Position numbers and translations under genes: made by a program. From positions 129,052 through 153,051 of the forward strand of contig NZ_BMFO01000003.1 of NCBI RefSeq assembly GCF_014638745.1: 24,000 nt of DNA, in the 5' to 3' direction. The stretch is from Arenimonas maotaiensis (lineage in GTDB: Bacteria > Pseudomonadota > Gammaproteobacteria > Xanthomonadales > Xanthomonadaceae). Positions 5,901 to 24,000 of this stretch are shown here, one piece after another. Position 1 is the stretch's first letter; every line of letters begins with the position of its first letter. The notes under the pieces were generated by a model that made no database searches, was not told the origin of the DNA, and saw only the letters and a list, made by a program, of their open reading frames with translations.

Positions 5901-8822
5901 TCACCAGCCCTCTTCCAGCACGCGTTCCAGCTGCGCCACGAAGAATTCCGCGTCGTCCTGCGTCAGGCACATAGGCGGCTTGATCTTCAGCACGTTGTTG
6001 CGCTCGCCGGTGGGCTGCACCACCACGCCGAGCTCGCGCAGGCGTTCGCAGATGGCGAAGCATTCGGCGCTGGCCGGTTCCAGGCTGTCGCGGTCGCGCA
6101 CCAGCTCCACGCCCTGGTACAGGCCCATGCCGTGCACCGCGCCGATCAGCGGGAAGCGCGCCTTCAATTCGGCGAAGCGCGCCAGCAGGAAGTCGCCGAC
6201 GCGCGCGGCGTTGGCCTGCAGGCCTTCGTCGCGGATCGCGTCCAGCACCGCCAAACCGGCCACGCACGAGGCCGGACTGCCGCCGGCCGAGGAGAACAGG
6301 CTGCCTTGCTTCTTGAACGCCTCGGCGATGGCGCGGGTGGTGATCACCGCGCCGAGCGGATAGCCGTTGCCCATGGCCTTGGCGATGGTGATCATGTCCG
6401 GCACCACGCCCTGGCCTTCATGCGCCCACCAGCGATGGCCGAGCCGGCCGTAGCCGACCTGCACTTCATCGGCGATGCACAGGCCGCCGTGCGCGCGCAC
6501 CGCGGCGTAGGCCGCGGCCAGGTAACCGTCCGGCAGTAGCACGCCGCCGGCGTTGCCGAATACCGGTTCGGCGATGAAGGCCGCCGGCGGCCGGCCGCGC
6601 GCGGCCAGGTCGTCGACCAAGGCGCGGAATTCGCTGGCGTAGCCGCTGGCCGCCTCCGCGCCGCGGAAACGGCCGCGGTAGGCGTTCGGTGCCGAGGCCA
6701 GATGCACCCAATCCGGGCGCGTGGCCAAGGCGTTGGGATTGTCGGCCACCGAGGTGGTGACCGCGTCCGACAGCAGGGTCCAGCCGTGGTATGCCTCGCG
6801 CACGGCCATCACGTCCATCCGGCCGGTGACGGTCTGCGCCATGCGCAAGGCCAGATCGACCGCCTCCGAGCCCGAATTCACCAACAGCACCGTGTCCAAC
6901 CCGGGCGGCGCCAGTTCCACCAGGCGCTCGCTGAGTTCGGCGATGGCGGCGTAATGGAAGCGCGAGTTGGTGTTGAGCGTCAGCAGCTGCCGGTGCACCG
7001 CTTCCGCCAGACGCGGATGGCCGTGGCCGATGGCGGCGACGTTGTTGACCATGTCCAGATAAGAGCGCGCGTCGCTGTCGACCAGATACTGCTTCCAGCC
7101 GCGCTCCATGCGCATCGGCTGGTGGTAATAGTGCACTTGCACGTCGGCGAACGTACCCTTGCGCCGCGCCAGCAGGCCGTCGGCATCGGCGTCCGGCGCC
7201 GCCAGCGCGCAACCCAGCAACGGCGAGGGATCCGGGCAGAGGCGCTGCCAAGCCGGCGCATGCACGCCATCGCTGAAGCGCGGCGCGGCCAAGGCATCGC
7301 TCAGGCAAACCTGCACCCGCAAGCCGCGGCCGTCGCTGCGGCCCAGATGCTGGCCGCGCGCCAAGGGCGTACCGACGGCAAGGTCGTGCTGCAGTCCGTC
7401 CACCCGGATGCGGCCGGCGGCGCTGTCCAGTGTCAACCCGGCGGCATCCGCCGCCACCACCCGGCAATCCAGCGGCGCCACGGCATCACTTTCGGCCGGC
7501 ACGCGGAAATCGATGCCGAGCGCGCAGGTCTGCGGCGCCTCGGCCGACAGCGCCGGCGTGCGCGTGAAGCGGAATTCGCCGTAACGGGTGGCGGCTGCGC
7601 CGGAACGCACGGCCGCTTTGGCCAGGATGCGGGCATCGCTCTGGGGTTGCAGCCATTGCCCGGCGTGCAAGGCCTCGCTGGTACTGGACAGGTCCACCGC
7701 GTCGAAGTGGGTGATGCCGGGGAACAGCGGCGTGCAGCCGGCCAGCACGGCGCGCATGGCCTGCTGTTCCGGCGTGGGCTCACGGCCGAGCGCCGCGCGC
7801 AATGCGGCGTCGGCCACGGCGAACGGCACCGAGGCCGCGACTTCGAACAGGCGCCATTCGTTTTCGATCGGCTCCAGCACCGAGGGATTGTCCGGATCGA
7901 GCTTGGCCTGATGTTCGCCGCTGACCACCAACGCGCCGCCGCGCAACACCATCAGCGGCCAGAACGCCGCGATCTCGGCATCGGTCAGCGGCACATGCCG
8001 GTCGAACGCGCGCACCGCATGCAGGATTGCCAGCGGCGCCTCCGGCCGGTGATGCAGCACCGAGGAGCAGGTGATGGCGAGTTCGCCGATGCGCCAGGTG
8101 CGGGTCAGGTCGCCGAGGTCGATGATGCCGTCGGGCCGGATGCGGCCGGCTTGGTCACGCGGGCCCACCACGTTGTCGTCGGTGATGTCGCCGTGGATGG
8201 CCTGCATCGGCAGCAGCGGCTTGAGCGGCGCCAGCGCGCGTTCGGCGGCGGCGGCCGCCGCCAGCACCGTGTCGCGCCGGTCCGCGCTGCGGATATCGGG
8301 GTGCAGGCGCGCGATCACCTCCTCGGCGTGGCGTAGATCCCATTGCACCACGCGCTCCAGTCCGGGATGGTCGAAATCGGCCAAGGCCGCGCAGGTACGG
8401 CCGGATACCTCGCCCAGGTCGGCGATGACCTCCGGCGCCAGGTAGCCGACGCCGGTCAGCGGCCGGCCTTCCACATACGACAGCAGGCGCACCAGCAAGC
8501 GGTCGTCGCCGACCGGGTATTCGCGGATTTCCACGCCGGCGGCGTCGGCGAACGGTACCGGCGCCTTCAGCCCGGGATCCTTGCGCGTCAAATGGCGCAT
8601 GGCGGCATGCTGGGCCTCCAGCGTGTCGCGGCCCCAGCTGCGGTTGGCGACTTTCAGCACCCGCGGCCCGGCGGCGGTATCGATGCGGAAATTGCGGTCC
8701 TGCGAGCTGCCCAGCTCGCGCACCGGCCCTTCCGCGCCGAACAGCTCACGGCCGATGCGGGCGGCCAAGGTGTCGTCGACGGGCGGACGGGGGGAGATGG
8801 CGATGCGGTTTTCGGTGTCCAT
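5901..8822 (-). CDS. Three-part fusion: APH/hydroxylysine-kinase-like phosphotransferase + degenerate M23-like segment + class-III (AGXT2L/phospho-lyase-like) PLP aminotransferase, 973 aa
   Basis: Kinase catalytic loop HGDITDDN at nt 8172-8195, followed by IIDLGD. The mid segment (aa ~430-510) has an M23-like spacing (GIDF…APLDCRVVA…VGTPLARGQHLG) but lacks the His ligands. The C-terminal 410 aa carry class-III aminotransferase motifs (LVNSGSEA, ADEVQVGYGR). The PLP lysine is in ITIAKAMGNGYP, codon 6378-6380. Confidence 0.85.
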   Translation of the reverse strand: MDTENRIAISPRPPVDDTLAARIGRELFGAEGPVRELGSSQDRNFRIDTAAGPRVLKVANRSWGRDTLEAQHAAMRHLTRKDPGLKAPVPFADAAGVEIREYPVGDDRLLVRLLSYVEGRPLTGVGYLAPEVIADLGEVSGRTCAALADFDHPGLERVVQWDLRHAEEVIARLHPDIRSADRRDTVLAAAAAAERALAPLKPLLPMQAIHGDITDDNVVGPRDQAGRIRPDGIIDLGDLTRTWRIGELAITCSSVLHHRPEAPLAILHAVRAFDRHVPLTDAEIAAFWPLMVLRGGALVVSGEHQAKLDPDNPSVLEPIENEWRLFEVAASVPFAVADAALRAALGREPTPEQQAMRAVLAGCTPLFPGITHFDAVDLSSTSEALHAGQWLQPQSDARILAKAAVRSGAAATRYGEFRFTRTPALSAEAPQTCALGIDFRVPAESDAVAPLDCRVVAADAAGLTLDSAAGRIRVDGLQHDLAVGTPLARGQHLGRSDGRGLRVQVCLSDALAAPRFSDGVHAPAWQRLCPDPSPLLGCALAAPDADADGLLARRKGTFADVQVHYYHQPMRMERGWKQYLVDSDARSYLDMVNNVAAIGHGHPRLAEAVHRQLLTLNTNSRFHYAAIAELSERLVELAPPGLDTVLLVNSGSEAVDLALRMAQTVTGRMDVMAVREAYHGWTLLSDAVTTSVADNPNALATRPDWVHLASAPNAYRGRFRGAEAASGYASEFRALVDDLAARGRPPAAFIAEPVFGNAGGVLLPDGYLAAAYAAVRAHGGLCIADEVQVGYGRLGHRWWAHEGQGVVPDMITIAKAMGNGYPLGAVITTRAIAEAFKKQGSLFSSAGGSPASCVAGLAVLDAIRDEGLQANAARVGDFLLARFAELKARFPLIGAVHGMGLYQGVELVRDRDSLEPASAECFAICERLRELGVVVQPTGERNNVLKIKPPMCLTQDDAEFFVAQLERVLEEGW

Positions 8823-12948: not shown

Positions 12949-14115
12949 TCAGCCCGAGACCGCCAGCTTCTCGTCGTGGTAACGGCGGGCCGCCAACCAC
13001 CACAGCACGGCGCCGAGGCCGAAGCCCGCGGCCAGATACACCGCCCATTCGGCGGACGAGACGCTTTCCGAACGCACGATCTTCAGGATCAGCTGGTTCT
13101 GCGACAGGAACGGCACCGCGAACTGCCAGAGCTGGTTCTTGATCGGATTGACCATCAGCACCACGGTCGGGATGATCGGCAGCATCATCAGCGCGCTCAT
13201 GTAGCTCTGCGCCTCCTTCACGCTCTTGGCGCCGGCGGCGATCAGGGTCAGCAGGCAGGTGCCGATCAGCACGATCGGCAGCAGCACCACCAGGATCTGG
13301 CCGACCGCGGCCCAGCCCATGCCCAGCTTCAGGCCCATGGCGCCGGCCACGACGAAGCTGCCCTTGAATGCCAGCAGCGTCAGCACCAGGCTGAACATGC
13401 CGAACACGCAGGCCGCCGCGATCTTGCCGCTCATGATCGCGCCGCGTGCGGCCGGCGTGGCCAGCAGCGGCTCCAAGGATTGCCGTTCGCGCTCGCCGGC
13501 GGTGGCGTCGATCACCAGATAGGCGCCGCCCAGGAAGCCGGACAGGATCAGCAGATAGGGCAGGAACGCCAAGGCCTGGCCGATGCGGCTTTCCGGCGTG
13601 GCCAAGTCCTTGCGTTCCACCAACACCGCCTGCCCCGCCGACGGACTGACGCCGCGCGCCAGCAGACGCAGGGCGCCGGCGCTGCGGCTGTAGTTGTCCA
13701 GCAATGCGTTCAGGCGTTCGGTCGGGATGCGGGCGTCGTCGCGCGAGCTGTCGCTGATGACCTCCACCGGCGCCGGTTCGCCGGCCCGCCATTTTTCGGC
13801 GTAGTCGGCGGGAATCGACAGGATGACCTCGACGTTCTGCGCCGCGATCTCGCCCTCCGGGTTGGCCGGCGCCGGCTTGATCAGCACATTGCGGCCGGAT
13901 AGCCAGTTGATCAGGTTCGGCGCGCGTTCGGCGCCGATCACCGGCAGCTCCAGCGGCTTCTCCAATTGGGTCGACATGCGGTTGTTGGCCAGCTTGGCCA
14001 TGCCCAGGATCAGCAGCGGCGCCAGCAGGGTGAATGCCAACGAGATGGCGATGGTCTTGCGGTCGCGGAACAGGTCGAGCAGTTCCTTGCGCATCACGGT
14101 GATGAGTGCGTTCAT
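12949..14115 (-). CDS. ABC-2-type transporter permease, NatB-like (large extracytoplasmic loop after TM1), 388 aa
   Basis: True start is ATG 14113-14115 (MNALITVMRKELLDLFRDRKT…), which overlaps the ATPase stop as ATGA. One N-terminal TM helix, a hydrophilic loop of about 190 aa, then five or six hydrophobic helices. The listed ORF 12949..14298 is over-extended. Confidence 0.85.
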   Translation of the reverse strand: MNALITVMRKELLDLFRDRKTIAISLAFTLLAPLLILGMAKLANNRMSTQLEKPLELPVIGAERAPNLINWLSGRNVLIKPAPANPEGEIAAQNVEVILSIPADYAEKWRAGEPAPVEVISDSSRDDARIPTERLNALLDNYSRSAGALRLLARGVSPSAGQAVLVERKDLATPESRIGQALAFLPYLLILSGFLGGAYLVIDATAGERERQSLEPLLATPAARGAIMSGKIAAACVFGMFSLVLTLLAFKGSFVVAGAMGLKLGMGWAAVGQILVVLLPIVLIGTCLLTLIAAGAKSVKEAQSYMSALMMLPIIPTVVLMVNPIKNQLWQFAVPFLSQNQLILKIVRSESVSSAEWAVYLAAGFGLGAVLWWLAARRYHDEKLAVSG

Positions 14116-14858
14116 GCGTGGAAACCCTCCTCGCTGCCGATGATCTTGACGAAGGCCTCTTCCAGGTTGGCCTCCCCGGTCTGCGCGCGCAGTTCGTCGG
14201 CCGTGCCGTCGGCCATGACCTTGCCATGCGCGATCACCACGATGCGGTCGCACAGCGCGGCGACCTCCTGCATGATGTGGCTGGAGAAGATGACGCACCG
14301 TCCTTCGGCCTTCAGCTGCTTGAGGAACTCGCGCAGGGCGCGCGTGGTCATCACGTCCAGGCCGTTGGTCGGTTCGTCCAGGATCACGTTTTTCGGATCA
14401 TGGATCAGCGCGCGCGCGATCGCGGTCTTGGTGCGTTGGCCCTGCGAGAAGCCTTCGCACTGGCGGTCGAGGATGTCCTCCATGCCCAGCGACGCGGCCA
14501 GGCGGGCGATGCCCTGGTCGATGGCGGCCTCGGTCATGCCGTGCAGGCGGCCGAAGTAGCGGATGTTCTCGCGCGCGGTCAGGCGTTTGTACACGCCGCG
14601 GGCGTCCGGCAGCACGCCCAGGCGCGCGCGCACGTCGCCGGCGTGGGTGTCGGGCGAGAAGCCGTCGACCGCGATGCGGCCGGCGTCCGGCGACATCAGG
14701 GTATACAGCATGCGCAGGGTGGTGGTCTTGCCGGCGCCGTTCGGGCCGAGCAGGCCGGTGATCTCCCCGTCGCGGGCGTGGAAGCCCACGCCTTGGACGG
14801 CATGCACCGTTCCGGTCTTGGTGGTGAAGCGTTTATGCAAATCGGTGACGTCGATCAT
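14112..14858 (-). CDS. ABC transporter ATP-binding protein (NatA-like)
   Basis: Walker A GPNGAGKTT. Signature-like FSQGQRTK. Walker B VILDEPTNGLD. H-loop SSHIM. ATG at 14856-14858, 10 nt after the hydrolase stop, with a GAGGAA ribosome-binding site. Confidence 0.95.
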   Translation of the reverse strand: MIDVTDLHKRFTTKTGTVHAVQGVGFHARDGEITGLLGPNGAGKTTTLRMLYTLMSPDAGRIAVDGFSPDTHAGDVRARLGVLPDARGVYKRLTARENIRYFGRLHGMTEAAIDQGIARLAASLGMEDILDRQCEGFSQGQRTKTAIARALIHDPKNVILDEPTNGLDVMTTRALREFLKQLKAEGRCVIFSSHIMQEVAALCDRIVVIAHGKVMADGTADELRAQTGEANLEEAFVKIIGSEEGFHA

Positions 14859-14868
14859 GTCGGTTTCC

Positions 14869-16413
14869 TCAGGGTTCCCAGCCGTAATAGCCGGTGAACG
14901 GCGATGCGTAGGTGAGCCTGTCCATGCAGGCGGCGTCGAGCGCTTTCGGATCGGCGCTTTCCAGGAAGCGGGCGTACAGCTTCGGCATGCAGCCCACCGG
15001 CAGCACGTTGTGGCCGGTGCCCTTGGCCACGATGTGGCGGGCGTTGCCCAGGTGCTTCATCACCAGGTCGCCGTAGCGCGGCGGCGTGACCGGGTCGAAT
15101 TCGCCCGAGAGCACCAGCACCGGCAGCTTGCCGGTCAGCGGCGCGCGGTAGTCGGCCGGGCGCGGCTTGTGCGGCCACACCGCGCACTGCGCCTGCATCA
15201 GCTCCACCAATCCGGTGCCGAGCAGGCGCGTGCGGTCTTCCGGATCCACTTTCAGGTCCGGCGCGTCCTCGGAGCACATCACCGACAGCTGCATGCCGTG
15301 CATGATCTGGTCGGAGATGTCGCGGGTGAGCATTTCGCTTAAACCCATCAGCGCATCGACGTGGCCTTGGTTGCCTTCGCTGAACAGCAGCGGCAGCACG
15401 CCCGCCGCCTGCGGCGCATAGGCCAGCATGCGCGTCAGCATCGCCACATGGCCGGCGCTGAACTGGCCGTCGCGCCATTCGCCGGTCAGCGCGTCGCGGT
15501 AACGCACCGGCACCGGGCCTTTGGCCAGGGTCGCCATCAGTTTGTCCAGCTGCGCGCGCGGGTCGCCCATTTTGGCACGGCAGGCCGCGTCGGCGCTGCA
15601 ACGGGTGAACTGCAGGTCGAGCGAGGCCTCCAGGTTCTTGGCGTGATCCTGGCCGAGCACGGTCTCCAGCGGCGCCACGCCGTCGAGCACCACCGTGCGC
15701 GTGCTGGCCGGATAGCGCTTGGCGTACAGCTGCGCCATGCGCGTGCCGTAGGAGATGCCGATCAGGTTGATCTGCGCGGCGCCGATCGCCTTGCGCGCGA
15801 GATCCAGGTCCTGGATGGCGTCGCTGCTGCTGAACTGGCGCACGTCCACTTTGCCCGCGTACTGCGCCGCGCAGCGTTCGGCGAAGGCGGCGGCCGAGGC
15901 CGCGCTGTAGTCCTCGTCTTCCACCACCGCGCTTCGGCCGTCGGCGTCCACGCATTTGAGCGGATGGGAATCGCCGGTGCCGCGCTGGTCGAGCAGGATG
16001 ATGTGGCGCGATTTGCGCGCCTCGGCGAAAGCGCCGGCGATGCCCGGGAAGCTTTCGCGCGCGCCCTGGCCGGGGCCGCCGGCCAGCATGAAGATCGGGT
16101 CGTCTTCGGCGTCGCGCGTGGCCGGCAGCCAGGCGATGGCCAGCTTCAGCTTCCGACCGTCCGGTTTGCTGTGGTCTTCCGGCACCTGCAGCTCGCCGCA
16201 GAACGCCATCAGCGCGTCGGTGCCGCGCGCCAGGGTGCAGGGCTGGAAACGGATGCCGCCCAGCGTACGGCCGAGGTCGACCGCGGCCACCGCCGCTTTC
16301 GGTTTCGGTGCGTCGGCGTCTTTGCCGCCGTCGGACAGATACGGTTTGGCGATCCAGGCCGCGGCGGCGATGACCACCGCCGCGCGCAGCCCGTTCCGGT
16401 ATTTGGCTTGCAT
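14869..16413 (-). CDS. Secreted/anchored alpha/beta hydrolase, S33 TAP-like (tripeptidyl-aminopeptidase-type) family, 514 aa
   Basis: Real start is ATG 16411-16413 (MQAKYRNGLRAAVVIAAAAWIA…, a signal/anchor sequence), preceded by GGAGGAG. Nucleophile elbow GISYG with Ser codon at 15751-15753. The C-terminal PVLVLSGEFDPVTP and GTGHNV are typical of TAP-like hydrolases. The listed ORF 14869..16719 is over-extended. Confidence 0.85.
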   Translation of the reverse strand: MQAKYRNGLRAAVVIAAAAWIAKPYLSDGGKDADAPKPKAAVAAVDLGRTLGGIRFQPCTLARGTDALMAFCGELQVPEDHSKPDGRKLKLAIAWLPATRDAEDDPIFMLAGGPGQGARESFPGIAGAFAEARKSRHIILLDQRGTGDSHPLKCVDADGRSAVVEDEDYSAASAAAFAERCAAQYAGKVDVRQFSSSDAIQDLDLARKAIGAAQINLIGISYGTRMAQLYAKRYPASTRTVVLDGVAPLETVLGQDHAKNLEASLDLQFTRCSADAACRAKMGDPRAQLDKLMATLAKGPVPVRYRDALTGEWRDGQFSAGHVAMLTRMLAYAPQAAGVLPLLFSEGNQGHVDALMGLSEMLTRDISDQIMHGMQLSVMCSEDAPDLKVDPEDRTRLLGTGLVELMQAQCAVWPHKPRPADYRAPLTGKLPVLVLSGEFDPVTPPRYGDLVMKHLGNARHIVAKGTGHNVLPVGCMPKLYARFLESADPKALDAACMDRLTYASPFTGYYGWEP

Positions 16414-16415
16414 GT

Positions 16416-16607
16416 TCACTCCTCCATGAAAATCGATTCGATCGGCAACCCGAACAGCCGCGCGATCTTGAATGCCAGCTTGATGCTGGGGTCGTATTTT
16501 TCCGTCTCGATGGCGTTCACCGTCTGCCGCGACACCTCCAGCCGGTCGGCCAGCTCGGCCTGCGACCAGCCGAATTGCTCGCGCAGCTGGCGGACCCGGC
16601 TTTTCAC
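16416..16607 (-). CDS. Mini XRE-family helix-turn-helix transcriptional regulator (63 aa)
   Basis: The translation …GWSQAELADRLEVSRQTVNAIETEKYDPSIKLAFKIARLFGLPIESIF is the widespread family of about 65 aa usually found next to small multi-TM proteins. GTG start at 16605-16607 overlaps the upstream stop (GTGA). Confidence 0.9.
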   Translation of the reverse strand: MKSRVRQLREQFGWSQAELADRLEVSRQTVNAIETEKYDPSIKLAFKIARLFGLPIESIFMEE

Positions 16608-16999
16608 GCGCGGTACCGCCAGATCCCGATGTAGCGGGTGACGATATAGACCAGGCCGATGACCAACACCAGCACCGACAGCATCTCGCGTGCATCCAGG
16701 CCCAATACCCGGAAGTCATGCAGCAGCAGCAGGCTGTAGCCCGCGAGAAGACCGGTCATTGAGGACAGCGCCATGGCGTCCATTTCGATCTTGCGTTCCA
16801 GCTCGTCGCATTCGCCCAGATAGCGGAAGTAAAGCCAGAAAATCCAGGCCAAGGGCGCCAGCGGCAGCACGGCCAGTCCGGCTTTGGCCGCCTGCGACGG
16901 CATCGACGGCGCCATCAGATACGCCGCGACGGTCAGCCCGACGCACAGCAGGCCCGGCACGATGGATTTCAGGTAATAGCGTTTCAGCGGCGCGCGCAT
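16604..16999 (-). CDS. Four-TM membrane protein, paralog B (131 aa), YLGECDE motif
   Basis: Four hydrophobic helices. Motif YLGECDE at nt 16802-16822, in the loop between TM2 and TM3. Ends …WRYRA. The stop overlaps the XRE start. Confidence 0.7.
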   Translation of the reverse strand: MRAPLKRYYLKSIVPGLLCVGLTVAAYLMAPSMPSQAAKAGLAVLPLAPLAWIFWLYFRYLGECDELERKIEMDAMALSSMTGLLAGYSLLLLHDFRVLGLDAREMLSVLVLVIGLVYIVTRYIGIWRYRA

Positions 17000-17009
17000 G
17001 CCGGGCGCC

Positions 17010-17444
17010 TCAGCGGTAACGGCGAACGGCCTGCCATTTGGTCAGGCCGTAGAAGCCGCACAGCGACGGGAATACCCAGATGGCGACGGTGCCGCCGCCC
17101 ACGGTGAACACGCCGGCCTGGATCAGGAAGCCGATCGACAGGAACAGCAGGCCGACGATCAGGCTGGCCAAGGCGATGGCTTCCAGTTCGACGTGTCGGA
17201 TCATTTCGTCGCATTCGCCCAAGTAGGCCACCAGCGCCTTGCCCAGCAAGGCCACCGGCACCACCGGAGCCAATGCCAGCAGGGCCTTCGCGCCGGCGGG
17301 CCAGTCCGCGGCCACGCCGCGCAACAGCAGGATCGAGCCGAACAGCAGGGCGACATAGGCGCTCATGGTGGCCACGACCCGGCGTGTGTAACGGATTTCG
17401 GCCGCGGTGCGCGGTCGGAAGCATGAGGTGTCGGTGTCGGCCAT
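17010..17444 (-). CDS. Four-TM membrane protein, paralog A (144 aa), YLGECDE motif
   Basis: Four hydrophobic helices. Motif YLGECDE at nt 17205-17225. Ends …VRRYR. ATG at 17442-17444 is preceded by GGGGGA. There are 10 nt between its stop and the paralog B start. Confidence 0.7.
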   Translation of the reverse strand: MADTDTSCFRPRTAAEIRYTRRVVATMSAYVALLFGSILLLRGVAADWPAGAKALLALAPVVPVALLGKALVAYLGECDEMIRHVELEAIALASLIVGLLFLSIGFLIQAGVFTVGGGTVAIWVFPSLCGFYGLTKWQAVRRYR

Positions 17445-17455
17445 GGCAGTCCCCC

Positions 17456-17473
17456 TGTAAAGTCGACTTTACA
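17456..17473. promoter_or_regulatory. Perfect 18-bp palindrome TGTAAAGTCGACTTTACA, candidate operator of the XRE operon
   Basis: The sequence is exactly self-complementary. It lies 12-29 nt upstream of the first start codon of the operon. Confidence 0.5.
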
Positions 17474-17509
17474 TAAGACTGCATGATTAAAGTGGTAGTG
17501 TCAAGCGTG

Positions 17510-17517
17510 CTTTACAT
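17510..17517. promoter_or_regulatory. Third copy of the operator half-site (CTTTACAT), next to a TTGACA -35-like hexamer
   Basis: The 8-mer CTTTACAT occurs at 17467-17474 (right arm of the palindrome plus 1 nt) and again at 17510-17517. TTGACA on the minus strand lies at 17499-17504, between the two sites. Confidence 0.4.
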
Positions 17518-17622
17518 TTTTGTTTCTGATGCGGAGCCTGAACCGGATAAATCGTTCTTCTCATTGGAAAAACGCCGGATTCCGGTCAGAATCGGGACAT
17601 AACGGGATGCTCAGGGAAGGCT

Positions 17623-20418
17623 ATGCCGCTCAGTTGGAACGAAATCAAAAACCGCGCCCTTGCCTTCGCCAAGGAGTGGGACGGCGAAGCCTCCGAACAC
17701 GCCAACGCCAAGCCGTTCTGGGATGACTTCTTCAACGTCTTCGGGATTACCCGCAAGCGTGTGGCGGCCTTCGAGGAGCCGGTCAAGAAACTGGGCGACA
17801 AGCAGGGCTTCATCGACCTGTTCTGGAAAGGTGTGTTGCTGGTCGAGCACAAGTCGCGCGGCAAGGACCTGGACAAGGCCTATACGCAGGCTCTGGATTA
17901 TTTTCCCGGCATCCCCGAGCGCGATCTGCCGAAGTATGTGCTGGTTTCCGACTTCGCCCGGTTCCGCCTGTACGATCTGGAGGAAAACACCCAGCTTGAG
18001 TTCGCGCTGGGTGATTTGCATAAAAACGTACAGGCATTCGGCTTCATCGCCGGCTACCAGACGCATAAAATCAAGGAACAGGACCCGGTCAACATCAAAG
18101 CCGCCGAGCGTATGGGCCGGCTGCACGACCAGATGAAGGCGGTGGGCTATGACGGCCACGCCCTGGAGCACTACCTGGTCCGCCTGCTGTTCTGCCTGTT
18201 CGCCGAGGACACCGGCATCTTCGAGCGCCGGCAGTTCCAGGATTACATCGAGCAGAAGACCCACGAAGACGGCTCCGATCTGGCGCACCACATGGCCACG
18301 CTGTTCCACGTGCTGAACCAGGAGCAGGGCAAGCGCCTGAAGAACCTCGACGAGCAGTTGGCGGCTTTTCCCTATGTCAACGGCAAGCTGTTCGCCGAAC
18401 CCTTGCCGCCGGCCAGTTTCGATTCGGCGATGCGGCAGGCGCTGCTGGATTGTTGCGCACTGGACTGGAGCCGCATTTCGCCGGCCATCTTCGGCTCGCT
18501 GTTCCAGTCGATCATGGACAAGAAGGCCCGCCGCAACCTGGGCGCGCATTACACCAGCGAAAAGAACATCCTCAAGCTCATCAAGCCGCTGTTCCTGGAC
18601 GAGCTGTGGCAGGAGTTCGAGTCGGTCAAGTCCAACAAGCAGAAGCTGTTCGCCTTCCATGAAAAGCTGCGTGCGCTGAAGTTCCTCGATCCGGCCTGCG
18701 GTTGCGGTAACTTCCTGGTCATCGCCTACCGCGAACTGCGCCTGCTGGAGCTGGAAGTGCTGCGGGTGCGCTTCAAGACCAACGAGAAGTCCGGGCAGAC
18801 CGAAAACATCCAGACCATGATCCTGCTGGACGTGGACCAGTTCTACGGCATCGAGATCGAGGAATTCCCGGCACAGATCGCGCAGGTGGCCTTGTGGCTG
18901 ATGGACCACCAGATCAACCTGAAGATCTCCGAAGAGTTCGGCGAATACTTCGCGCGCATTCCCCTGCGTTCCAGCGGTAGCATCGTGTGCGCCAATGCCC
19001 TGCGCCTAGATTGGAACGATGTGGTTCCGGCCAAGGAATTAAGCTACATCCTCGGCAATCCGCCGTTTATCGGCGCGAAATTCATGGATGACGCGCAGCG
19101 CGCCGATGTGGCTGAGGTTTTCGACAACATCAAAAATGCCGGCCTGCTTGATTTCGTGGCAGCGTGGTATGTGAAAGCGGCAAAAATGATGCAGGGCACG
19201 TCCATTCGTTGTGCCTTCGTTTCCACGAATTCCATCGTTCAGGGCGAGCAGGTCGGCGTTTTATGGAGTTGGATGCTGGCCAATGGCGTAAAAATCTTCT
19301 TTGCCCATCGCACCTTCTCCTGGAATAACGAAGCGCGCGGCAAAGCCGCCGTGCATTGCGTGATAATCGGGTTTGCGTTGAACGACATTTCACCGAAATG
19401 GCTGTTCGAGTACGAAGATATCAAGGGCGAAGCACATCGCGTGCAAGTAAAGAATATCAATCCCTATTTGGTCGATGCGCCGAATATCGTGCTATTCAAT
19501 CGCTCAAAACCTTTATGCGATGTTCCCGGAATTGGAATTGGCAACAAGCCGATTGATGGCGGATATTACTTGTTTTCAGATTTTGAAATGGCGGATTTCA
19601 TTAAAGCAAATCCTGATTCCAAGATTTGGTTCAAGAAATGGCTTGGAGCTGATGAATTTATTAATGGCTGGCAAAGGTGGTGCTTGTTCATACGAGATAT
19701 GCCGCCAAATGAAATGCAGGCTAACCCGGCAATTTTGGGCATTATTGATAAGGTCAGAAATTATCGACTTGGCTTGATTCCAGCAAGAAATGCCGCAACC
19801 GATAAAGAGCCAAAGGTTGGCCAAAGTGCAAAACAGCTTGCGGCCACGCCAACACGGTTTCATGTTGAAAAAGTTTCCGATACAACCCAACTTATTATCC
19901 CGTCCGTATCGTCAGAAAAGCGGAATTACATTCCGATTGGATTTGAGCCAGAGACAACGCTTTGCAGCAATCTTGTGTTTGTTGCGGTTAATGCAAACTT
20001 ATTCCATTTCGGAATACTGAATTCAACAATGCATAATGCGTGGATGAGAGTGGTTTCTGGACGGCTTAAAAGTGACTACCGATATTCTGCCGGCATTGTC
20101 TATAACAATTTTCCATGGCCCGAAAATCCAAGTGCCAAGCACAAACAGGCGATAGAAGAGGCTGCGCAGGCGGTTTTGGATGCCCGCGCCCAATTCCCGG
20201 ATTCCACCTTGGCCGATCTGTACGATCCGCTGACCATGCCACCTGTATTGCTGAAAGCGCACCAGGCACTGGATAAGGCCGTGGACGCGGCGTACGGCAA
20301 GACCAATTTCAAGAGCGAGGCCGAGCGCGTGGCGTTTTTGTTTGAGCGATATCAATCGCTTGATTCAATATTAGCTAGCCGGACAGTCAAACCAAACCGC
20401 AACAAGTCAGCAACCTGA
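17623..20418 (+). CDS. MmeI-family Type IIL (IIG) single-polypeptide restriction endonuclease / N6-adenine DNA methyltransferase, 931 aa
   Basis: The N-terminal MPLSWNEIKNRALAFAKEW…AKPFWDDFFNVFGITRKRVAAFE matches MmeI as I remember it. D-x9-E-x-K nuclease motif (DLFWKGVLLVEHK) at nt 17815-17853. SAM motif I FLDPACGCGNFLV at 18682-18720. Catalytic NPPF at 19057-19068. The size and domain order match MmeI (919 aa). Confidence 0.9.
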   Translation: MPLSWNEIKNRALAFAKEWDGEASEHANAKPFWDDFFNVFGITRKRVAAFEEPVKKLGDKQGFIDLFWKGVLLVEHKSRGKDLDKAYTQALDYFPGIPERDLPKYVLVSDFARFRLYDLEENTQLEFALGDLHKNVQAFGFIAGYQTHKIKEQDPVNIKAAERMGRLHDQMKAVGYDGHALEHYLVRLLFCLFAEDTGIFERRQFQDYIEQKTHEDGSDLAHHMATLFHVLNQEQGKRLKNLDEQLAAFPYVNGKLFAEPLPPASFDSAMRQALLDCCALDWSRISPAIFGSLFQSIMDKKARRNLGAHYTSEKNILKLIKPLFLDELWQEFESVKSNKQKLFAFHEKLRALKFLDPACGCGNFLVIAYRELRLLELEVLRVRFKTNEKSGQTENIQTMILLDVDQFYGIEIEEFPAQIAQVALWLMDHQINLKISEEFGEYFARIPLRSSGSIVCANALRLDWNDVVPAKELSYILGNPPFIGAKFMDDAQRADVAEVFDNIKNAGLLDFVAAWYVKAAKMMQGTSIRCAFVSTNSIVQGEQVGVLWSWMLANGVKIFFAHRTFSWNNEARGKAAVHCVIIGFALNDISPKWLFEYEDIKGEAHRVQVKNINPYLVDAPNIVLFNRSKPLCDVPGIGIGNKPIDGGYYLFSDFEMADFIKANPDSKIWFKKWLGADEFINGWQRWCLFIRDMPPNEMQANPAILGIIDKVRNYRLGLIPARNAATDKEPKVGQSAKQLAATPTRFHVEKVSDTTQLIIPSVSSEKRNYIPIGFEPETTLCSNLVFVAVNANLFHFGILNSTMHNAWMRVVSGRLKSDYRYSAGIVYNNFPWPENPSAKHKQAIEEAAQAVLDARAQFPDSTLADLYDPLTMPPVLLKAHQALDKAVDAAYGKTNFKSEAERVAFLFERYQSLDSILASRTVKPNRNKSAT

Positions 20419-20442
20419 ACAATTTCAAGCAAAACTTGTAAT

Positions 20443-20457
20443 CTATATAAAATATAG
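20443..20457. promoter_or_regulatory. Inverted repeat CTATAT-AAA-ATATAG in the AT-rich leader of the DUF4258 gene (candidate promoter/operator)
   Basis: The palindrome lies 11 nt upstream of ATG 20468. TATAAA at 20446-20451 is -10-like. TTGTAA at 20436-20441 is -35-like. Confidence 0.3.
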
Positions 20458-20467
20458 GTAATCTTGC

Positions 20468-20809
20468 ATGGCAAAAGCCAAAAAGCCCAAAAAAGCGGTT
20501 GCCCGGATTGCGCTGACAACGGCGAATGCATCACGGATCATCAGGCGCTTGGCGCAGGATTCCAATGCGGTTTACTTCACCGATCATGCCAGTAAACGGA
20601 TGGCGCAGAGGAAAGTGACCCGCCCGCAGGTGATGGAATGTCTGATGAAGGGCGCCATAACGGAAGGACCGGCGCTTGATATCAAGGGATGCTGGAAGGT
20701 TACGGTCAGCCGGGCCGTATGCGGAGATGGAATTGATGTGGTGCTTGCTTTGGATTGGGATGCGGAAAGCGCCAGTTACGTGGTTGTCGTGACGGTCATT
20801 AGGGATTGA
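20468..20809 (+). CDS. DUF4258-family protein (putative toxin of a type II TA-like pair), 113 aa
   Basis: The segment …VYFTDHASKRMAQRKVTRPQVMECLMKG… matches the DUF4258 signature (f..HA..Rm.eR.i). The N-terminus is Lys-rich. Its stop lies 4 nt before the next ATG. Confidence 0.75.
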   Translation: MAKAKKPKKAVARIALTTANASRIIRRLAQDSNAVYFTDHASKRMAQRKVTRPQVMECLMKGAITEGPALDIKGCWKVTVSRAVCGDGIDVVLALDWDAESASYVVVVTVIRD

Positions 20810-20813
20810 TTTT

Positions 20814-21263
20814 ATGTTTCATTACGTTGACTGCGGATTGTTGAATGTGTGGCTTTCGAATGGTTACAAGACCATCGATACGCCCTATGGACGTGCTACC
20901 GCCATCGAGGATGTCGCCGGTCTGCACCGCGCCATCGGCACTCAGCTGGCAAGGGAGAAGCGGCATCTTTCCGGCCGTGAATTCCGCTTTTTACGCAAAG
21001 AGCTCGGGCTGTCGCAGGAAATGCTCGGGCAGTGGCTGGGTTACACCGACGGGCAGCAGATCGCCAAGTGGGAAAAATCGGCCCGGGTGCCTAGATTGCA
21101 GGACGGCGTGCTTCGTCAGCTCTATCTGGAGTCGATCAATGAGAAGAACGCGCAGTTCACCGCCATATTGAGGCGCCTGCAGGAAATCGATGCGAGCAAC
21201 CACAACGCCAAATTGGTTTTCACCGAGAGCGCCAAGAAGGGCTGGACTTCCAAAGTGGCGTGA
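20814..21263 (+). CDS. MqsA/YgiT-family HTH antitoxin-like protein lacking the zinc-ribbon cysteines, 149 aa
   Basis: The segment FHYVDCGLLNVWLSNGY…IEDVAGLHRAIGTQLAREKRHLSGREFRFLRKELGLSQEMLGQWLGY…IAKWEK follows the YgiT-type pattern (Y..SGL.NV.L…C..CGE…LH..IA…LTG.EIRFLRK.LG.S). The CxxC pairs are absent: the protein starts after the first pair, and the second is replaced by DTPYGR. AGGGA ribosome-binding site 8 nt upstream. Confidence 0.75.
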   Translation: MFHYVDCGLLNVWLSNGYKTIDTPYGRATAIEDVAGLHRAIGTQLAREKRHLSGREFRFLRKELGLSQEMLGQWLGYTDGQQIAKWEKSARVPRLQDGVLRQLYLESINEKNAQFTAILRRLQEIDASNHNAKLVFTESAKKGWTSKVA

Positions 21264-21306
21264 TCGCCTGCAGGGCGTATAGCCATTACGCTGAAACGTT
21301 TCCGCC

Positions 21307-21334
21307 ATCATTTTGTTGGCGTCAACAAAATGAT
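21307..21334. repeat. AT-rich perfect hairpin/palindrome ATCATTTTGTTG-GCGT-CAACAAAATGAT between convergent genes
   Basis: 12-bp arms at 21307-21318 and 21323-21334 with a 4-nt loop. The right arm ends on the first base of the stop codon of the 21334..21834 gene. No U-tract follows on either strand. Confidence 0.6.
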
Positions 21335-21834
21335 CAGCCCGGCAACCGCCCGTAAGCGATCTCGCCCTCGTGATAGCACTCCAGTAGCCAGTCTCCGGTC
21401 TCGGACGACAGCCAGGCGTCGAAATCGGCGTCCAGCAATTCACGCAGATGCTGGCGAACGGCATCGGCGCGTAAGCGCAGGCCCGGCTTCAGGGCATTGC
21501 CCCAGACCAGCGTCAGGGCTTCGTCCGGCGCCGGCCACAGCGCCGTCAGCGTGGCCAGACACGCGGCATCGCGGGCCGTCGGATCCTGCCAGGGAATGCG
21601 CTCCGAACCCGGCACGGCCGCCCAGCGGATGCGGCCGATATCCCACGGAAAACGGCGGCCGAGCCAGCGCTCCCGCAGCTGCTCGGGCCAGATCAAGGCA
21701 TAGGGCGTGCCGGCGGCGTCCAAGGCCGCCAGCTCGTGGGCGACGGTCGCCCGGCAGGCGTCGCGTTCGCGCCGCGCCTGCAATTGGCGCCGTTTGGCCA
21801 GCAGTTCGCGGTGGCGGTCGTCGGGCGGGTTCAT
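21334..21834 (-). CDS. Hypothetical protein (166 aa), host-like GC
   Basis: I trimmed the listed ORF 21334..21960 to ATG 21832-21834 (MNPPDDRHRELLAKRRQLQ…), because the upstream 42 codons overlap the reductase gene. It lies 23 nt downstream of that gene's stop on the same strand. I recognise no motif. Confidence 0.55.
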   Translation of the reverse strand: MNPPDDRHRELLAKRRQLQARRERDACRATVAHELAALDAAGTPYALIWPEQLRERWLGRRFPWDIGRIRWAAVPGSERIPWQDPTARDAACLATLTALWPAPDEALTLVWGNALKPGLRLRADAVRQHLRELLDADFDAWLSSETGDWLLECYHEGEIAYGRLPG

Positions 21835-21857
21835 GGCGGACGCGCCGGAACGGCGAG

Positions 21858-22607
21858 CTATTTGCTCGACACGTACTTTTCGCGCCGGATGTGGTGCACC
21901 GACAGGCCGAATTCCTTCAGCGCCTCGAAGCAGGCGTCGACCATGTTCGGGTTGCCGCACAGATAGGCGATGTCGTGCGCGCCGTTCGGTGCCAATTCGG
22001 CCAGTTGCTCCTGCACGTAGCCGGTGCGGGCATCGGCAGTGGGATTTTCCGGCAATTTCCGCGAAAATGACGGCATAAAGCGGAATTTCGGGTTATCTTC
22101 AGCGAACTTGTAGAAATCTTCGCGGTAAATGAGGTCTTCTTCGCTGCGGGCGCCGAACAGCAGCACCACCTCCACGCCACGGCTGTCCATCAGCTGCTTG
22201 AGTTGCGGCAGCATGGCGCGGTACGGCGTCACGCCGGTGCCGGTGGCGATCAGGATATAGCGCGCGTTCTGGTCTTTGTCGTTCAGGCAGAACCGGCCGT
22301 ACGGGCCGCTGCACTGGATCTGCTGGCCGTCATCGAGCGCGGTGAACAGCGCCGAGGCCGCGCCGCCGGGCACGAAGCTGACCGCGATCTCGACGCTGTC
22401 GTTCACGCCGAAGGCGTGGTCGTGCTGGGTGGCCAACGAATAGCTGCGCTTGGTCGGGGTGCCGTCGGGGTAGTTGAAGTGCACCTGGATGAACTGGCCT
22501 GGGATGAAATCCAGGGCCTGGCCGTCGTCGCGGGTGAACTCCAGATGGCGGACGCTGGGCGCCAACATGCGGCTGCCGACGAGTTTCAGCGGGAAATGGT
22601 CTGCCAC
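21858..22607 (-). CDS. Ferredoxin-NADP(+) reductase-family flavoprotein (FAD/NAD(P)-binding oxidoreductase), 249 aa
   Basis: RSYSLA (RxYS FAD motif). ATGTGVTPY (NAD(P)-binding). YLCGNPNMV near the C-terminus. GTG start 22605-22607 with a GAGGAA ribosome-binding site. Confidence 0.9.
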   Translation of the reverse strand: MADHFPLKLVGSRMLAPSVRHLEFTRDDGQALDFIPGQFIQVHFNYPDGTPTKRSYSLATQHDHAFGVNDSVEIAVSFVPGGAASALFTALDDGQQIQCSGPYGRFCLNDKDQNARYILIATGTGVTPYRAMLPQLKQLMDSRGVEVVLLFGARSEEDLIYREDFYKFAEDNPKFRFMPSFSRKLPENPTADARTGYVQEQLAELAPNGAHDIAYLCGNPNMVDACFEALKEFGLSVHHIRREKYVSSK

Positions 22608-22622
22608 GGGCGGTTCCTCGGG

Positions 22623-22651
22623 TTCAGCTGGGGGTGCAAGCCCGATATACT
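22623..22651 (+). promoter_or_regulatory. Candidate sigma70 promoter of yadGH: TTCAGC-N17-TATACT
   Basis: -35-like hexamer at 22623-22628 and -10-like hexamer at 22646-22651, 38 nt upstream of ATG 22690. This is pattern only. It overlaps AT-rich sequence that could also serve the divergent reductase gene. Confidence 0.35.
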
Positions 22652-22689
22652 AAGCGTTCTGACGAAAGTTTGCCGTCTACGGAATCCCG

Positions 22690-23616
22690 ATGACCCAGCC
22701 CGCGCTTGCCATCCAATCCTTGCACAAGACCTACGACAACGGCGTGAAGGCGCTGAAGGGCGTCTCGCTCGAGGTCGCGCCCGGCGATTTCTTCGCCCTG
22801 CTGGGCCCGAACGGCGCCGGCAAATCGACCCTGATCGGCGTGGTCAGCTCGCTGGTCAACCCGAGTTCGGGCTCGGTGTCGGTGTTCGGCATCGACCTGA
22901 TGGCCGACCGCTCGGGCGCCATGCGCCAGATCGGCCTGGTGCCGCAGGAAATCAACTTCAACATGTTCGAGAAGCCGATCGACATCCTGGTCAATTACGC
23001 CGGCTTCTACGGCGTGCCGCGCGCCGAGGCGCTGCTGCGCGCCGAGAAGCAGCTGAAGGCCGCCCAGCTGTGGGAGAAGGCCGAGGTGATGAGCCGCACC
23101 CTGTCCGGCGGCATGAAGCGCCGGTTGATGATCGCCCGCGCGATGATGACCGAACCCAAGCTGCTGATCCTGGACGAGCCGACCGCCGGCGTCGACATCG
23201 AGATCCGCCGCGGCATGTGGAAGACCCTGCAGGAAGTGAACGCGGCCGGCACCACGGTGATCCTGACCACGCACTACCTGGAAGAGGCCGAGAGCCTGTG
23301 CCGCAACCTGGCCATCATCGACAAAGGCACCATCATCGAACAGGGGCCGATGAAAGCCCTGCTCGCCAAGCTGGATGTGGAAGGCTTCGTGCTCGACATC
23401 GACGGCGGACTGCCGGCCGAATTGCCGGCCATCGCCGGCGTCGAGCTGAAAGCCGCCGACAGCCACACCCTGGTGGCCGAAAAGCCGCGCGACCTGCCGC
23501 TGAACGACCTGTTCGAGGCGCTGGCCCGGGCCGGCATCACCGTGCGTTCGATGCGCAACCAGAGCAACCGGCTGGAAGAGCTGTTCGTGCGCCTGACCGC
23601 GAAGGAGGCCGCATGA
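22690..23616 (+). CDS. yadG: ABC transporter ATP-binding protein YadG (308 aa)
   Basis: Same length as E. coli YadG and near-collinear with it as I remember it (…LLGPNGAGKST…LVPQE.NFN.FE…LSGGMKRRLMIARA…EPKLLILDEPTAGVDIE.RR.MW…GTT.ILTTHYLEEAE.LCRN…RLEELFV). Confidence 0.9.
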   Translation: MTQPALAIQSLHKTYDNGVKALKGVSLEVAPGDFFALLGPNGAGKSTLIGVVSSLVNPSSGSVSVFGIDLMADRSGAMRQIGLVPQEINFNMFEKPIDILVNYAGFYGVPRAEALLRAEKQLKAAQLWEKAEVMSRTLSGGMKRRLMIARAMMTEPKLLILDEPTAGVDIEIRRGMWKTLQEVNAAGTTVILTTHYLEEAESLCRNLAIIDKGTIIEQGPMKALLAKLDVEGFVLDIDGGLPAELPAIAGVELKAADSHTLVAEKPRDLPLNDLFEALARAGITVRSMRNQSNRLEELFVRLTAKEAA

Positions 23617-24000
23617 GCCCGAACGCCACCGCCTTCGTCACCGTCGCCCGGCGCGAAGTGGCGCGCATCCTGCGCATCTGGGGTCAGACCCTGGTGCCGC
23701 CGGCGATCACCATGACCCTGTACTTCCTGATCTTCGGCAAGCTGATCGGCTCGCGCATCGGCGACATGGGCGGCTTCGACTACATGGACTTCATCGTGCC
23801 CGGCCTGGTGATGATGTCGGTGATCCAGAACGCCTACGGCAACATCAGCTCCAGCTTCTTCGGCGCCAAGTTCGGCCGCCACATCGAGGAGCTGCTGGTC
23901 AGCCCGATGCCCAACTACGTGATCCTGGCCGGCTACGTGGCCGGCGGCGTGCTGCGCGGCCTGATGGTCGGCCTGATCGTGCTGGCCATCGCCATGGCCT
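23613..24000 (+). CDS. yadH: ABC-2 transporter permease YadH, 3' end cut by window edge
   Basis: This ORF is not in the track because it runs off the window. My translation from ATG 23613 (ATGA overlap with the yadG stop) gives MSPNATAFVTVARREVARILRIWGQTLVPPAITMTLYFLIFGKLIGSRIGDMGGFDYMDFIVPGLVMMSVIQNAYGNISSSFFGAKFGRHIEELLVSP…, which matches the YadH pattern. Confidence 0.85.
   Translation, partial: MSPNATAFVTVARREVARILRIWGQTLVPPAITMTLYFLIFGKLIGSRIGDMGGFDYMDFIVPGLVMMSVIQNAYGNISSSFFGAKFGRHIEELLVSPMPNYVILAGYVAGGVLRGLMVGLIVLAIAMA

Follow-up and report, generated by a model that had tools for sequence, protein, structure and literature searches.

Restriction-modification (RM) enzymes of the MmeI family bind an asymmetric site as one polypeptide. 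They protect their own DNA by N6-methylation of one adenine on a single strand, and where this mark is missing they cleave about 20/18 nt downstream. Enzymes of this class are known to shuffle their target-recognition domain (TRD). How a toxin may back up restriction is classically illustrated by PrrC-EcoprrI, in which a Type I RM system guards an anticodon nuclease: PrrC lacks a dedicated antitoxin, is embedded in the hsd operon and is kept silent by the RM complex. Chromosomal toxin-antitoxin (TA) modules have been described as autonomous selfish elements in spots of high turnover, and TA systems rarely clustered with defence systems in the same survey (PMC13617665). DUF4258 is one of 13 toxin families of the RelE/ParE superfamily with a BECR fold; its activity is uncharacterised, and DUF4258-MqsA type pairs and fusions have been catalogued (PMC11980606). 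An MmeI-family gene and a DUF4258 gene lie side by side in Arenimonas maotaiensis, on a stretch of 24,000 nt (NZ_BMFO01000003.1, positions 129,052-153,051) that is called the window below and whose own positions serve as coordinates. There, an islet of 3,812 bp (17522..21333, plus strand) carries a gene for an MmeI-type enzyme, followed by a DUF4258 toxin gene and an antitoxin gene. An earlier note, made from the sequence alone, had regarded the three genes as a defence islet of foreign composition and as the best candidate in the region for a composite defence system. We read the islet, with a probability of about 0.68, as an ordinary RM gene and an autonomous, persistent TA module whose linkage is inherited rather than mechanistic.

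The islet is a horizontally acquired insertion that is absent from the closest relative. Among 80 loci of Lysobacteraceae, recovered by a scan with the neighbouring Fpr-like reductase as query, an Arenimonas metagenome-assembled genome (MAG; L018) was the closest, with an Fpr identity of 99 %. Its sequence is alignable to three stretches of the window, 12949-17000, 17456-17521 and 21334-23997; the 3,812 bp of the islet correspond there to about 20 nt. The alignment against relatives proposed in the earlier note thus yielded the junctions at base level (17521 / 21334). The three genes were present in none of about 60 other Lysobacteraceae, where Fpr was followed by membrane, XRE or peptidase genes within 0.1-5 kb, or by unrelated genes. 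Independent assemblies from other samples spanned the left junction (L001) and the right junction (L002-L005) at 99.98-100 % identity, hence the islet is not an assembly artefact. It starts 5 nt past the second operator palindrome of the XRE/membrane operon and ends at the stop codon of a convergent gene, hyp166; the open reading frame (ORF) coordinates in between confirmed exactly three plus-strand genes, coding for 931, 113 and 149 aa. The GC content of 0.536, versus 0.679 in the remainder of the window, with the lowest 300-nt value of 0.42 at 19400-20150, agrees with the low GC reported before, and a foreign islet between resident genes is now documented by an exact empty site. The GC content at third codon positions (GC3) revealed a mosaic: 0.81 for aa 1-598 of the MmeI-family protein, 0.41 for the TRD, 0.64 for its C-terminus, 0.61 for the DUF4258 gene and 0.72 for the antitoxin gene HTH149, with 0.83-0.93 in the flanking genes. 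The islet contained no tRNA and, according to the ORF list and a family search, no integrase, transposase or other recombinase; neither target-site duplications nor significant terminal direct repeats were detected at the junctions, where a convincing terminal repeat is absent. A CATTTT(T)GTT similarity at the junctions is short and was judged as chance. The renewed inspection thus agreed with the earlier negative finding, and a recombinase, a tRNA or att target and flanking direct repeats, as expected for an integrase-mobilised genomic island, were not found. Because the islet is without mobility genes, it was probably acquired by recombination via homology in the flanks. A scan of the islet for consensus promoters and terminators gave nothing above the shuffled expectation.

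The first gene (17623..20418, plus strand) codes for an apparently intact MmeI-family Type IIL (IIG) enzyme of 931 aa, as indicated by Pfam, PADLOC and PDB matches. Five Pfam domains, MmeI_N, MmeI_hel, MmeI_Mtase, MmeI_TRD and MmeI_C, were present with E values of 7e-27 to 3e-93, all far above the cutoff of 27 bits. MmeI itself (PDB 5HR4) aligned end to end (residues 1-927, 1236 bits), and the PADLOC run suggested in the earlier note matched the REase_MTase_IIG model with 1220 bits. The PD-(D/E)xK nuclease motif D65-x9-E75-x-K77 (IDLFWKGVLLVEHK, aa 64-77; 17815..17853, plus strand) aligned to the catalytic segment of MmeI, as did to their MmeI counterparts motif IV of the N6-adenine methyltransferase, NPPF (aa 479-482; 19057..19068, plus strand), and motif I, DPACGCGNF (aa 356-364; 18688-18714, plus strand). 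From the architecture of D-x9-ExK, FxGxG and NPPF described before, the nuclease residues and NPPF were recovered; the literal FxGxG was not, motif I being a CGxG variant. A second methylase gene was not present in the islet. Judged by these alignments, the protein is a bona fide MmeI-type enzyme with intact catalytic motifs, and the Type IIL/IIG identity assigned before holds with the five domains and the full-length match.

The TRD (aa 619-834; 19477..20124, plus strand) is hypervariable and low in GC. Its core (19674-20004) had no DNA homology to the MmeI genes of two other loci, L098 and L105, which are 79 % identical elsewhere. On the protein level the identity to these was 87-97 % at aa 1-560 and 839-909, and 20-67 % across aa 600-800. 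The nearest TRD relative among 4,955 database matches was 63 % identical, thus no close relative that could be the donor was among them. A GC dip at the TRD occurred in every MmeI homologue examined; the dip alone was therefore rejected as a date for the import. The contrast within the gene, a GC3 of 0.81 against 0.41, points to a recent exchange of the TRD, at a time when the remainder of the gene was already adapted to a high-GC host, so that the domain would be still un-ameliorated. The specificity residues are S761, N783, L784, K816 and D818 (K816-D818 at nt 20068-20076), in the positions of E751, N773, A774, E806 and R808 of MmeI. These five positions set bases 3, 4 and 6 of the sites in the MmeI family, and KxD instead of the ExR of MmeI leads to a G at position 6; NmeAIII, with the site GCCGAG, has S761/N783/L784/K816/D818 (Morgan and Luyten, PMC2731914). 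Since the residues of the window enzyme are identical to those of NmeAIII, numbering included, we predict a recognition site 5'-..CGAG-3', of which bases 1-2 cannot be read from the residues. The MmeI leader (17522..17622, plus strand), the presumed promoter region, is borne by the islet and not kept in other loci with MmeI and the pair: DNA homology to L098 and L105 starts only at 17612-17615. A consensus promoter was not found in the leader.

The second gene (20468..20809, plus strand) codes for a putative toxin of the BECR-fold RelE/ParE superfamily with 113 aa. The DUF4258 profile PF14076 matched at 40.7 bits (cutoff 25) over aa 37-112, covering profile positions 1-71 of 71, and the residues H40, R44, R52, Q54, K61 and W76 were invariant in 13 homologues. 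Only 4 nt past the toxin stop codon begins the antitoxin gene HTH149 (20814..21263, plus strand; 149 aa), for which Pfam gave weak HTH_31/HTH_3 matches. The structural model, with a predicted local distance difference test (pLDDT) score of 86, comprises a small N-terminal beta domain, a central XRE-type helix-turn-helix (HTH) and a C-terminal helix with a beta hairpin. In the Foldseek search the HTH domain alone matched, with HigA2-C, HipB, P22 c2, MqsA-C and RM controller proteins about equal (MqsA-C, 3fmy: TMt 0.66, probability 0.93), and a profile search against PDB returned generic XRE HTH proteins only. The label 'MqsA-like' of the earlier note had to be withdrawn as a family assignment: HTH149 reached 30.6 bits with the MqsA family model TIGR03830, below the cutoff of 61.8, and had no match to PF15731. 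C7 is the only Cys among its first 50 residues; a CxxC, and with it the MqsA zinc ligands, is lacking, and the predicted N-terminal beta domain does not match full-length MqsA. As the HTH resembles several XRE families equally, 'MqsA-like' describes the layout and not a family membership.

A wider family of the pair was assembled from 80 metagenomic loci by alignment of the antitoxin (42-58 % identity) and from 2 viral loci by alignment of the toxin. Of the 77 loci with sufficient upstream sequence, 72 had the DUF4258 gene directly in front of the HTH gene, and so had all loci of the close clade. Owing to this arrangement, DUF4258 and HTH149 are regarded as a genuine toxin-then-antitoxin module, with toxicity and neutralisation as the putative activities; together with the PF14076 match, it sustains the TA-like pair recognized in the earlier note. 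PADLOC had no model match for the pair. A toxin scan of viral contigs retrieved only two distant loci, and a plasmid search seven distant matches, one of them in a phage-plasmid without MmeI. In one protein of 198 aa (P0166), an HTH149-like antitoxin was joined to a gp49/HigB-like toxin domain (PF05973); this suggests that the partners of the antitoxin family come from at least two families of BECR toxins.

The pair is preceded by a sequence block of its own. At 20436..20464 (plus strand), ending 3 nt before the toxin ATG, TTGTAA, the palindrome CTATAT-aaa-ATATAG (20443-20457) and TAATCT follow each other. This 29-nt block is nearly invariant in the window, L010, L098, L101, L105, L108, L204 and L202, in loci with and without MmeI alike; further upstream the sequences diverge across the close clade. 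The palindrome occurs only once in the window, and the sequence before MmeI has no counterpart to it. Because of the conservation and the uniqueness, the block is a probable autoregulated promoter-operator.

Both modules also occur apart from each other. Four loci (L010, L016, L211, L212) have the left flank, the pair and the right flank of the window, with MmeI replaced by genes for a MazG-like protein (116 aa) and a Schlafen-group-3/DUF2075 helicase (744 aa), the latter extended by an additional C-terminal region (L010:220-2807; L211:2945-5532; also in L212 and L016); of the MmeI ORF, these L010-type alleles retain no more than ~50 nt at the 3' end. A 69 %-identical helicase is present in L204 and L205 (L204:1-1734, the contig begins within the helicase gene), followed by a decayed MmeI 3' remnant of ~130 nt with in-frame stops and then by the pair. 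The MmeI remnants beside the helicase genes identify MmeI as the earlier occupant, displaced while the pair stayed. In PADLOC the replacing cassette showed weak similarity only (PDC-S41 3.5e-14, AbiO, Nhi), and the MazG-like protein with the Schlafen-type helicase is a candidate for an uncharacterised defence pair. In L105 the MmeI gene has two nonsense codons and the pair is intact. In L098 and L105, MmeI and the pair are set apart by 0.7-2.1 kb with additional genes, one of which runs on the opposite strand. Copies closely similar to the window pair, but without MmeI, were detected beside an amidohydrolase gene (L101), a MerR-fused N6-methylase gene (L202/L203) and genes for Fic and XRE-M78 proteins (L213). 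The MmeI orthologue occurs without the pair in L022 and L024, in the neighbourhood known from L105, and the pair was absent beside four MmeI homologues of viral contigs (43-60 % identical). Within the wider pair family, 27 loci extend 3 kb or more upstream, and MmeI was nearby in one of them; the neighbours were mixed and included a Type III RM system, DarA-type polyvalent proteins, GGDEF-EAL and DnaN. From the three-gene composite unit proposed before, the recurrent linkage persists, but not the obligate unit: the pair has a probable promoter-operator of its own and is kept without MmeI, and MmeI occurs without the pair. In L202 (1-1896, minus strand) and L203, a MerR HTH is fused to an N6-adenine DNA methyltransferase (MTase), divergent from the pair, with PADLOC matches to Type I MTase (8e-49) and to MADS mad2 (1e-41) and mad1 (7e-11). 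In L164 (1673-6564) and L165, a copy of the pair lies beside a Type III RM system on the opposite strand, consisting of a Res helicase-endonuclease and an N6_N4 methylase.

On present evidence the enzyme and the pair are ordinary, separable parts. The first module would act as an intact Type IIL enzyme with the predicted ..CGAG site and a recently exchanged TRD. The second would be an autonomous type II TA operon of a DUF4258 toxin, a putative BECR-fold RNase, and an XRE-HTH antitoxin, which would bind the toxin and repress the operon at CTATAT-N3-ATATAG. The TA module would stay at each locus, since such pairs are hard to lose, and the upstream neighbour would turn over, being an intact MmeI, an MmeI with swapped TRD, a pseudogene or the MazG-like protein with the Schlafen-type helicase. 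The pair may stabilise the islet by addiction, and it may add an independent layer of growth arrest in phage attack, for which MmeI would not be needed. This pattern fits the picture of chromosomal TA modules (PMC13617665).

A number of observations weigh against an ordinary RM gene beside a merely persistent TA module. The model of the toxin was of medium quality (pLDDT 73), with a topology compatible with RelE; Foldseek with this model gave no significant match and did not recover the BECR fold, which is therefore assigned from Pfam and published classifications. The order MmeI, toxin, antitoxin in the same orientation was found in five chromosomal contexts with parallel divergence. Besides the window these are L098-L100, with a TonB receptor and HemN (identity of MmeI, toxin and antitoxin to the window 81, 83 and 87 %), L105, with Fpr/ABC genes ~5 kb downstream (80, 80 and 89 %), L108, with a caspase-like gene and a gene for 246 aa (62, 74 and 78 %), and the Silanimonas-like L121, with a gene for 1,006 aa and an aromatic amino acid hydroxylase (63, 39-49 and 55 %). 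A lack of co-occurrence elsewhere had been named in the earlier note as a result that would speak against its proposal; the modules do co-occur and co-diverge in these four. The presence of the three genes in all relatives with no compositional break had been named likewise; the relatives lack them, and the break is there. MmeI is, or was formerly, adjacent in six of nine close-clade contexts, and in eight of nine the neighbour is a gene of DNA modification or defence type. The linkage is thus stronger than plain hitch-hiking predicts, and longer-lived than the survey of chromosomal TA modules would suggest (PMC13617665). The rearrangement breakpoints cluster at the junction of the MmeI 3' end and the region upstream of the pair (20289..20410, plus strand; L204 at 20289, L105 at 20344, L098 at 20355, L010 at 20368); their position within ~120 nt could reflect a specific exchange site, beyond a selection for intact genes. 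As a separate observation, the islet of MmeI and pair in L098, an unrelated host, is bracketed by a 66-nt direct repeat (3909-3974, 8346-8410; 82 % identical, hairpin-forming) that resembles repetitive extragenic palindromic elements; it has no counterpart in the window.

These points lend some weight to a composite defence system, in which the pair is a functional partner of the enzyme, either as a backup by abortive infection or dormancy, triggered once restriction fails or is inhibited, or as a means to gain time for restriction; the pair may even serve whichever nucleic-acid effector fills the upstream slot. The recurrent, co-diverging linkage speaks for such a partnership, and the upstream neighbours in the close clade are nearly all of DNA-targeting or defence type (MmeI, MazG-like protein and Schlafen helicase, MerR-N6-methylase). 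An experimental precedent is the cooperation of an MqsR/MqsA-type TA system with restriction against phage T2 (PMC10783111). A perfect 14-nt inverted repeat connects the MmeI leader (17553-17566) with the coding region of the antitoxin (21137-21150), and none of 300 shuffles reached 14 nt; as both arms are on the plus strand, the leader and the antitoxin mRNA could pair. However, this complementarity did not recur in L098, L105, L108, L121 or L010, and it is either chance or lineage-specific. The partnership is further opposed by the separate, conserved and probable promoter-operator of the pair, with none shared upstream of MmeI, by a spacing between MmeI and pair that varies from 38 nt to 2.1 kb and includes the opposite-strand gene, by the retention of the pair after MmeI was pseudogenised or replaced, and by the MmeI orthologues without pair. 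The pair had no match among the PADLOC models, and its wider family resides mostly beside unrelated genes. We consider a functional partnership unlikely, and it is kept as a minority hypothesis because of the long-lived linkage, the clustered breakpoints and the experimental precedent. A literature search retrieved no paper that describes an association of MmeI with DUF4258, in line with the earlier note, whose author knew of no described functional coupling of a Type IIL enzyme with a DUF4258-type pair.

A related view, to which we assign a still smaller chance, takes the pair as the conserved 'anchor' of an exchangeable defence cassette. The effectors, MmeI with varying TRDs, the MazG-like protein with the Schlafen-type helicase or the MerR-N6-methylase, would be swapped at a recombination-prone segment on the 5' side of the pair (about 20289-20410), and the pair would act for each of them alike, as a sensor or as a backup through dormancy or abortive infection. 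Instead of a neighbourhood due to chance, the locus would then be a modular defence locus anchored by the TA pair.

It is very unlikely that the segment is ancestral to the Arenimonas lineage and was deleted in L018, with the low GC as a matter of protein composition. The Arenimonas-like L105 (Fpr 90 %) does have MmeI and the pair in the same general neighbourhood at 80-89 % identity, the GC3 of 0.81 in the N-terminal part of MmeI is near the host values and suggests a long residence in a high-GC genome, and the GC dip of the TRD is shared by all homologues. But the segment is absent from all other Lysobacteraceae loci examined, and the GC3 of the pair and the TRD is 0.41-0.72 against 0.83-0.93 in the flanks. 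In other hosts the module stands at unrelated loci and is always poorer in GC than its flanks, by 3-14 points in each; even if old in the genus, it would be foreign at its origin. Slightly less probable still is HTH149 as a C-protein-like controller that times MmeI expression in a new host, with DUF4258 as an accessory: its HTH resembles C.BclI and C.AhdI about as well as antitoxins (Foldseek TMt 0.52-0.56; C.BclI in the profile search at E 1.3) and its gene lies directly downstream of the RM gene, yet the sole conserved palindrome precedes the toxin gene with nothing similar before MmeI, the MmeI leader is not conserved among the loci, the HTH gene is coupled invariably to DUF4258 and not to MmeI, and single-chain RM fusion enzymes do not have the problem of R-versus-M timing that C-proteins solve.

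The resident genes on both sides are not strictly the core operons that the earlier note described. On the left, outside the islet, two operator-like palindromes TGTAAAG-N4-CTTTACA (17456-17473 and 17499-17516) belong to the divergent XRE/membrane operon; one is perfect and one has a single mismatch, 2 matches versus a chance expectation of 0.11, and both are kept in L018 and L010. The adjacent gene for a membrane protein of 144 aa (mem144, 17001-17455) is a second indel in comparison to L018, where 14 nt stand instead. It is a paralogue of the neighbouring mem131 and is present in both islet-bearing alleles (window and L211). On the right, hyp166 (21334-21834, minus strand) is a high-GC gene for 166 aa without family match, confined to the lineage of the window, L018 and L010 and therefore not a core gene; its final codons differ between the islet-bearing and the empty allele. 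A form of 208 aa with a GTG start had no exact protein match, the form of 166 aa with an ATG start is on record. The right islet end is formed by a palindrome with a perfect 12-bp stem, ATCATTTTGTTG-gcgt-CAACAAAATGAT (21307..21334), that overlaps the hyp166 stop codon. With folding z-scores of -2.75 (plus strand) and -2.92 (minus strand) it is probably a bidirectional terminator; it is present in L010-type alleles and missing from the empty site of L018. The slot between Fpr and the peptidase gene was considered as a dedicated defence hotspot in Lysobacteraceae. This was rejected: its other occupants are ordinary genes (histidine kinase, FG-GAP proteins, M50 peptidases, ArsR regulator), hence it is a generic variable spot. 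The Arenimonas MAGs L022, L023, L024 and L035 have an Fpr 85-86 % identical to that of the window at a genomic GC of only 48-50 % versus 68 % here, an unusually wide GC range for so close a protein identity.

Within a single species, one address holds three natural alleles: the empty site, MmeI with the TA module, and the MazG-like protein and helicase with the TA module. In compact form, the locus therefore illustrates how defence genes turn over next to a TA module that persists. As predictions it offers an NmeAIII-like ..CGAG specificity on a novel TRD and a conserved operator for an uncharacterised DUF4258 toxin family, and it flags the MazG-like protein with the Schlafen-type helicase as a candidate defence cassette. 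If the linkage of MmeI and TA module were functional, a TA-backed Type IIL system would join the known designs of RM plus toxin.

In comparison to described systems, the enzyme shares with MmeI of Methylophilus methylotrophus (5HR4) and with NmeAIII the five-domain single chain with the nuclease and NPPF motifs, and with NmeAIII the identical residues at the five published specificity positions. Its TRD is a distinct variant, with a best relative of 63 % and 20-67 % identity to the closest full-length homologues. The pair resembles the DUF4258 TA family (PMC11980606) in the toxin-then-antitoxin order with 4 nt in between, in an N-terminal domain followed by an XRE HTH and in a palindrome over the likely promoter. 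It differs from the DUF4258/MqsA-type members by an antitoxin below the MqsA threshold, without CxxC and with an additional C-terminal helix and beta hairpin, and by a Lys-rich N-terminal extension of the toxin. With MqsR/MqsA/MqsC (PMC10783111) the islet has in common the combination of a TA system of MqsA-type HTH antitoxin with restriction; there, however, the cooperation is functional, between unlinked genes and with McrBC, whereas in the window a linkage is known from the genes alone. As in PrrC-EcoprrI, a latent RNA-targeting toxin would be encoded beside RM genes, but the window toxin comes with a dedicated antitoxin and a probable promoter of the pair, and it is retained where the RM gene is gone. 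An antitoxin-less toxin, a dependence on the RM system and a strict co-occurrence, the marks of a guarded-toxin RM system, were not found. In behaviour there is a likeness to the selfish chromosomal TA modules (PMC13617665) and to the exchange of defence-island cargo between conserved flanks: the pair outlasts its neighbours, alternative cargos stand at one address in strains of a single species, and the islet has no recombinase. From these modules it is set apart by an unusually long-lived linkage to MmeI, over five contexts and down to 62 % MmeI identity.

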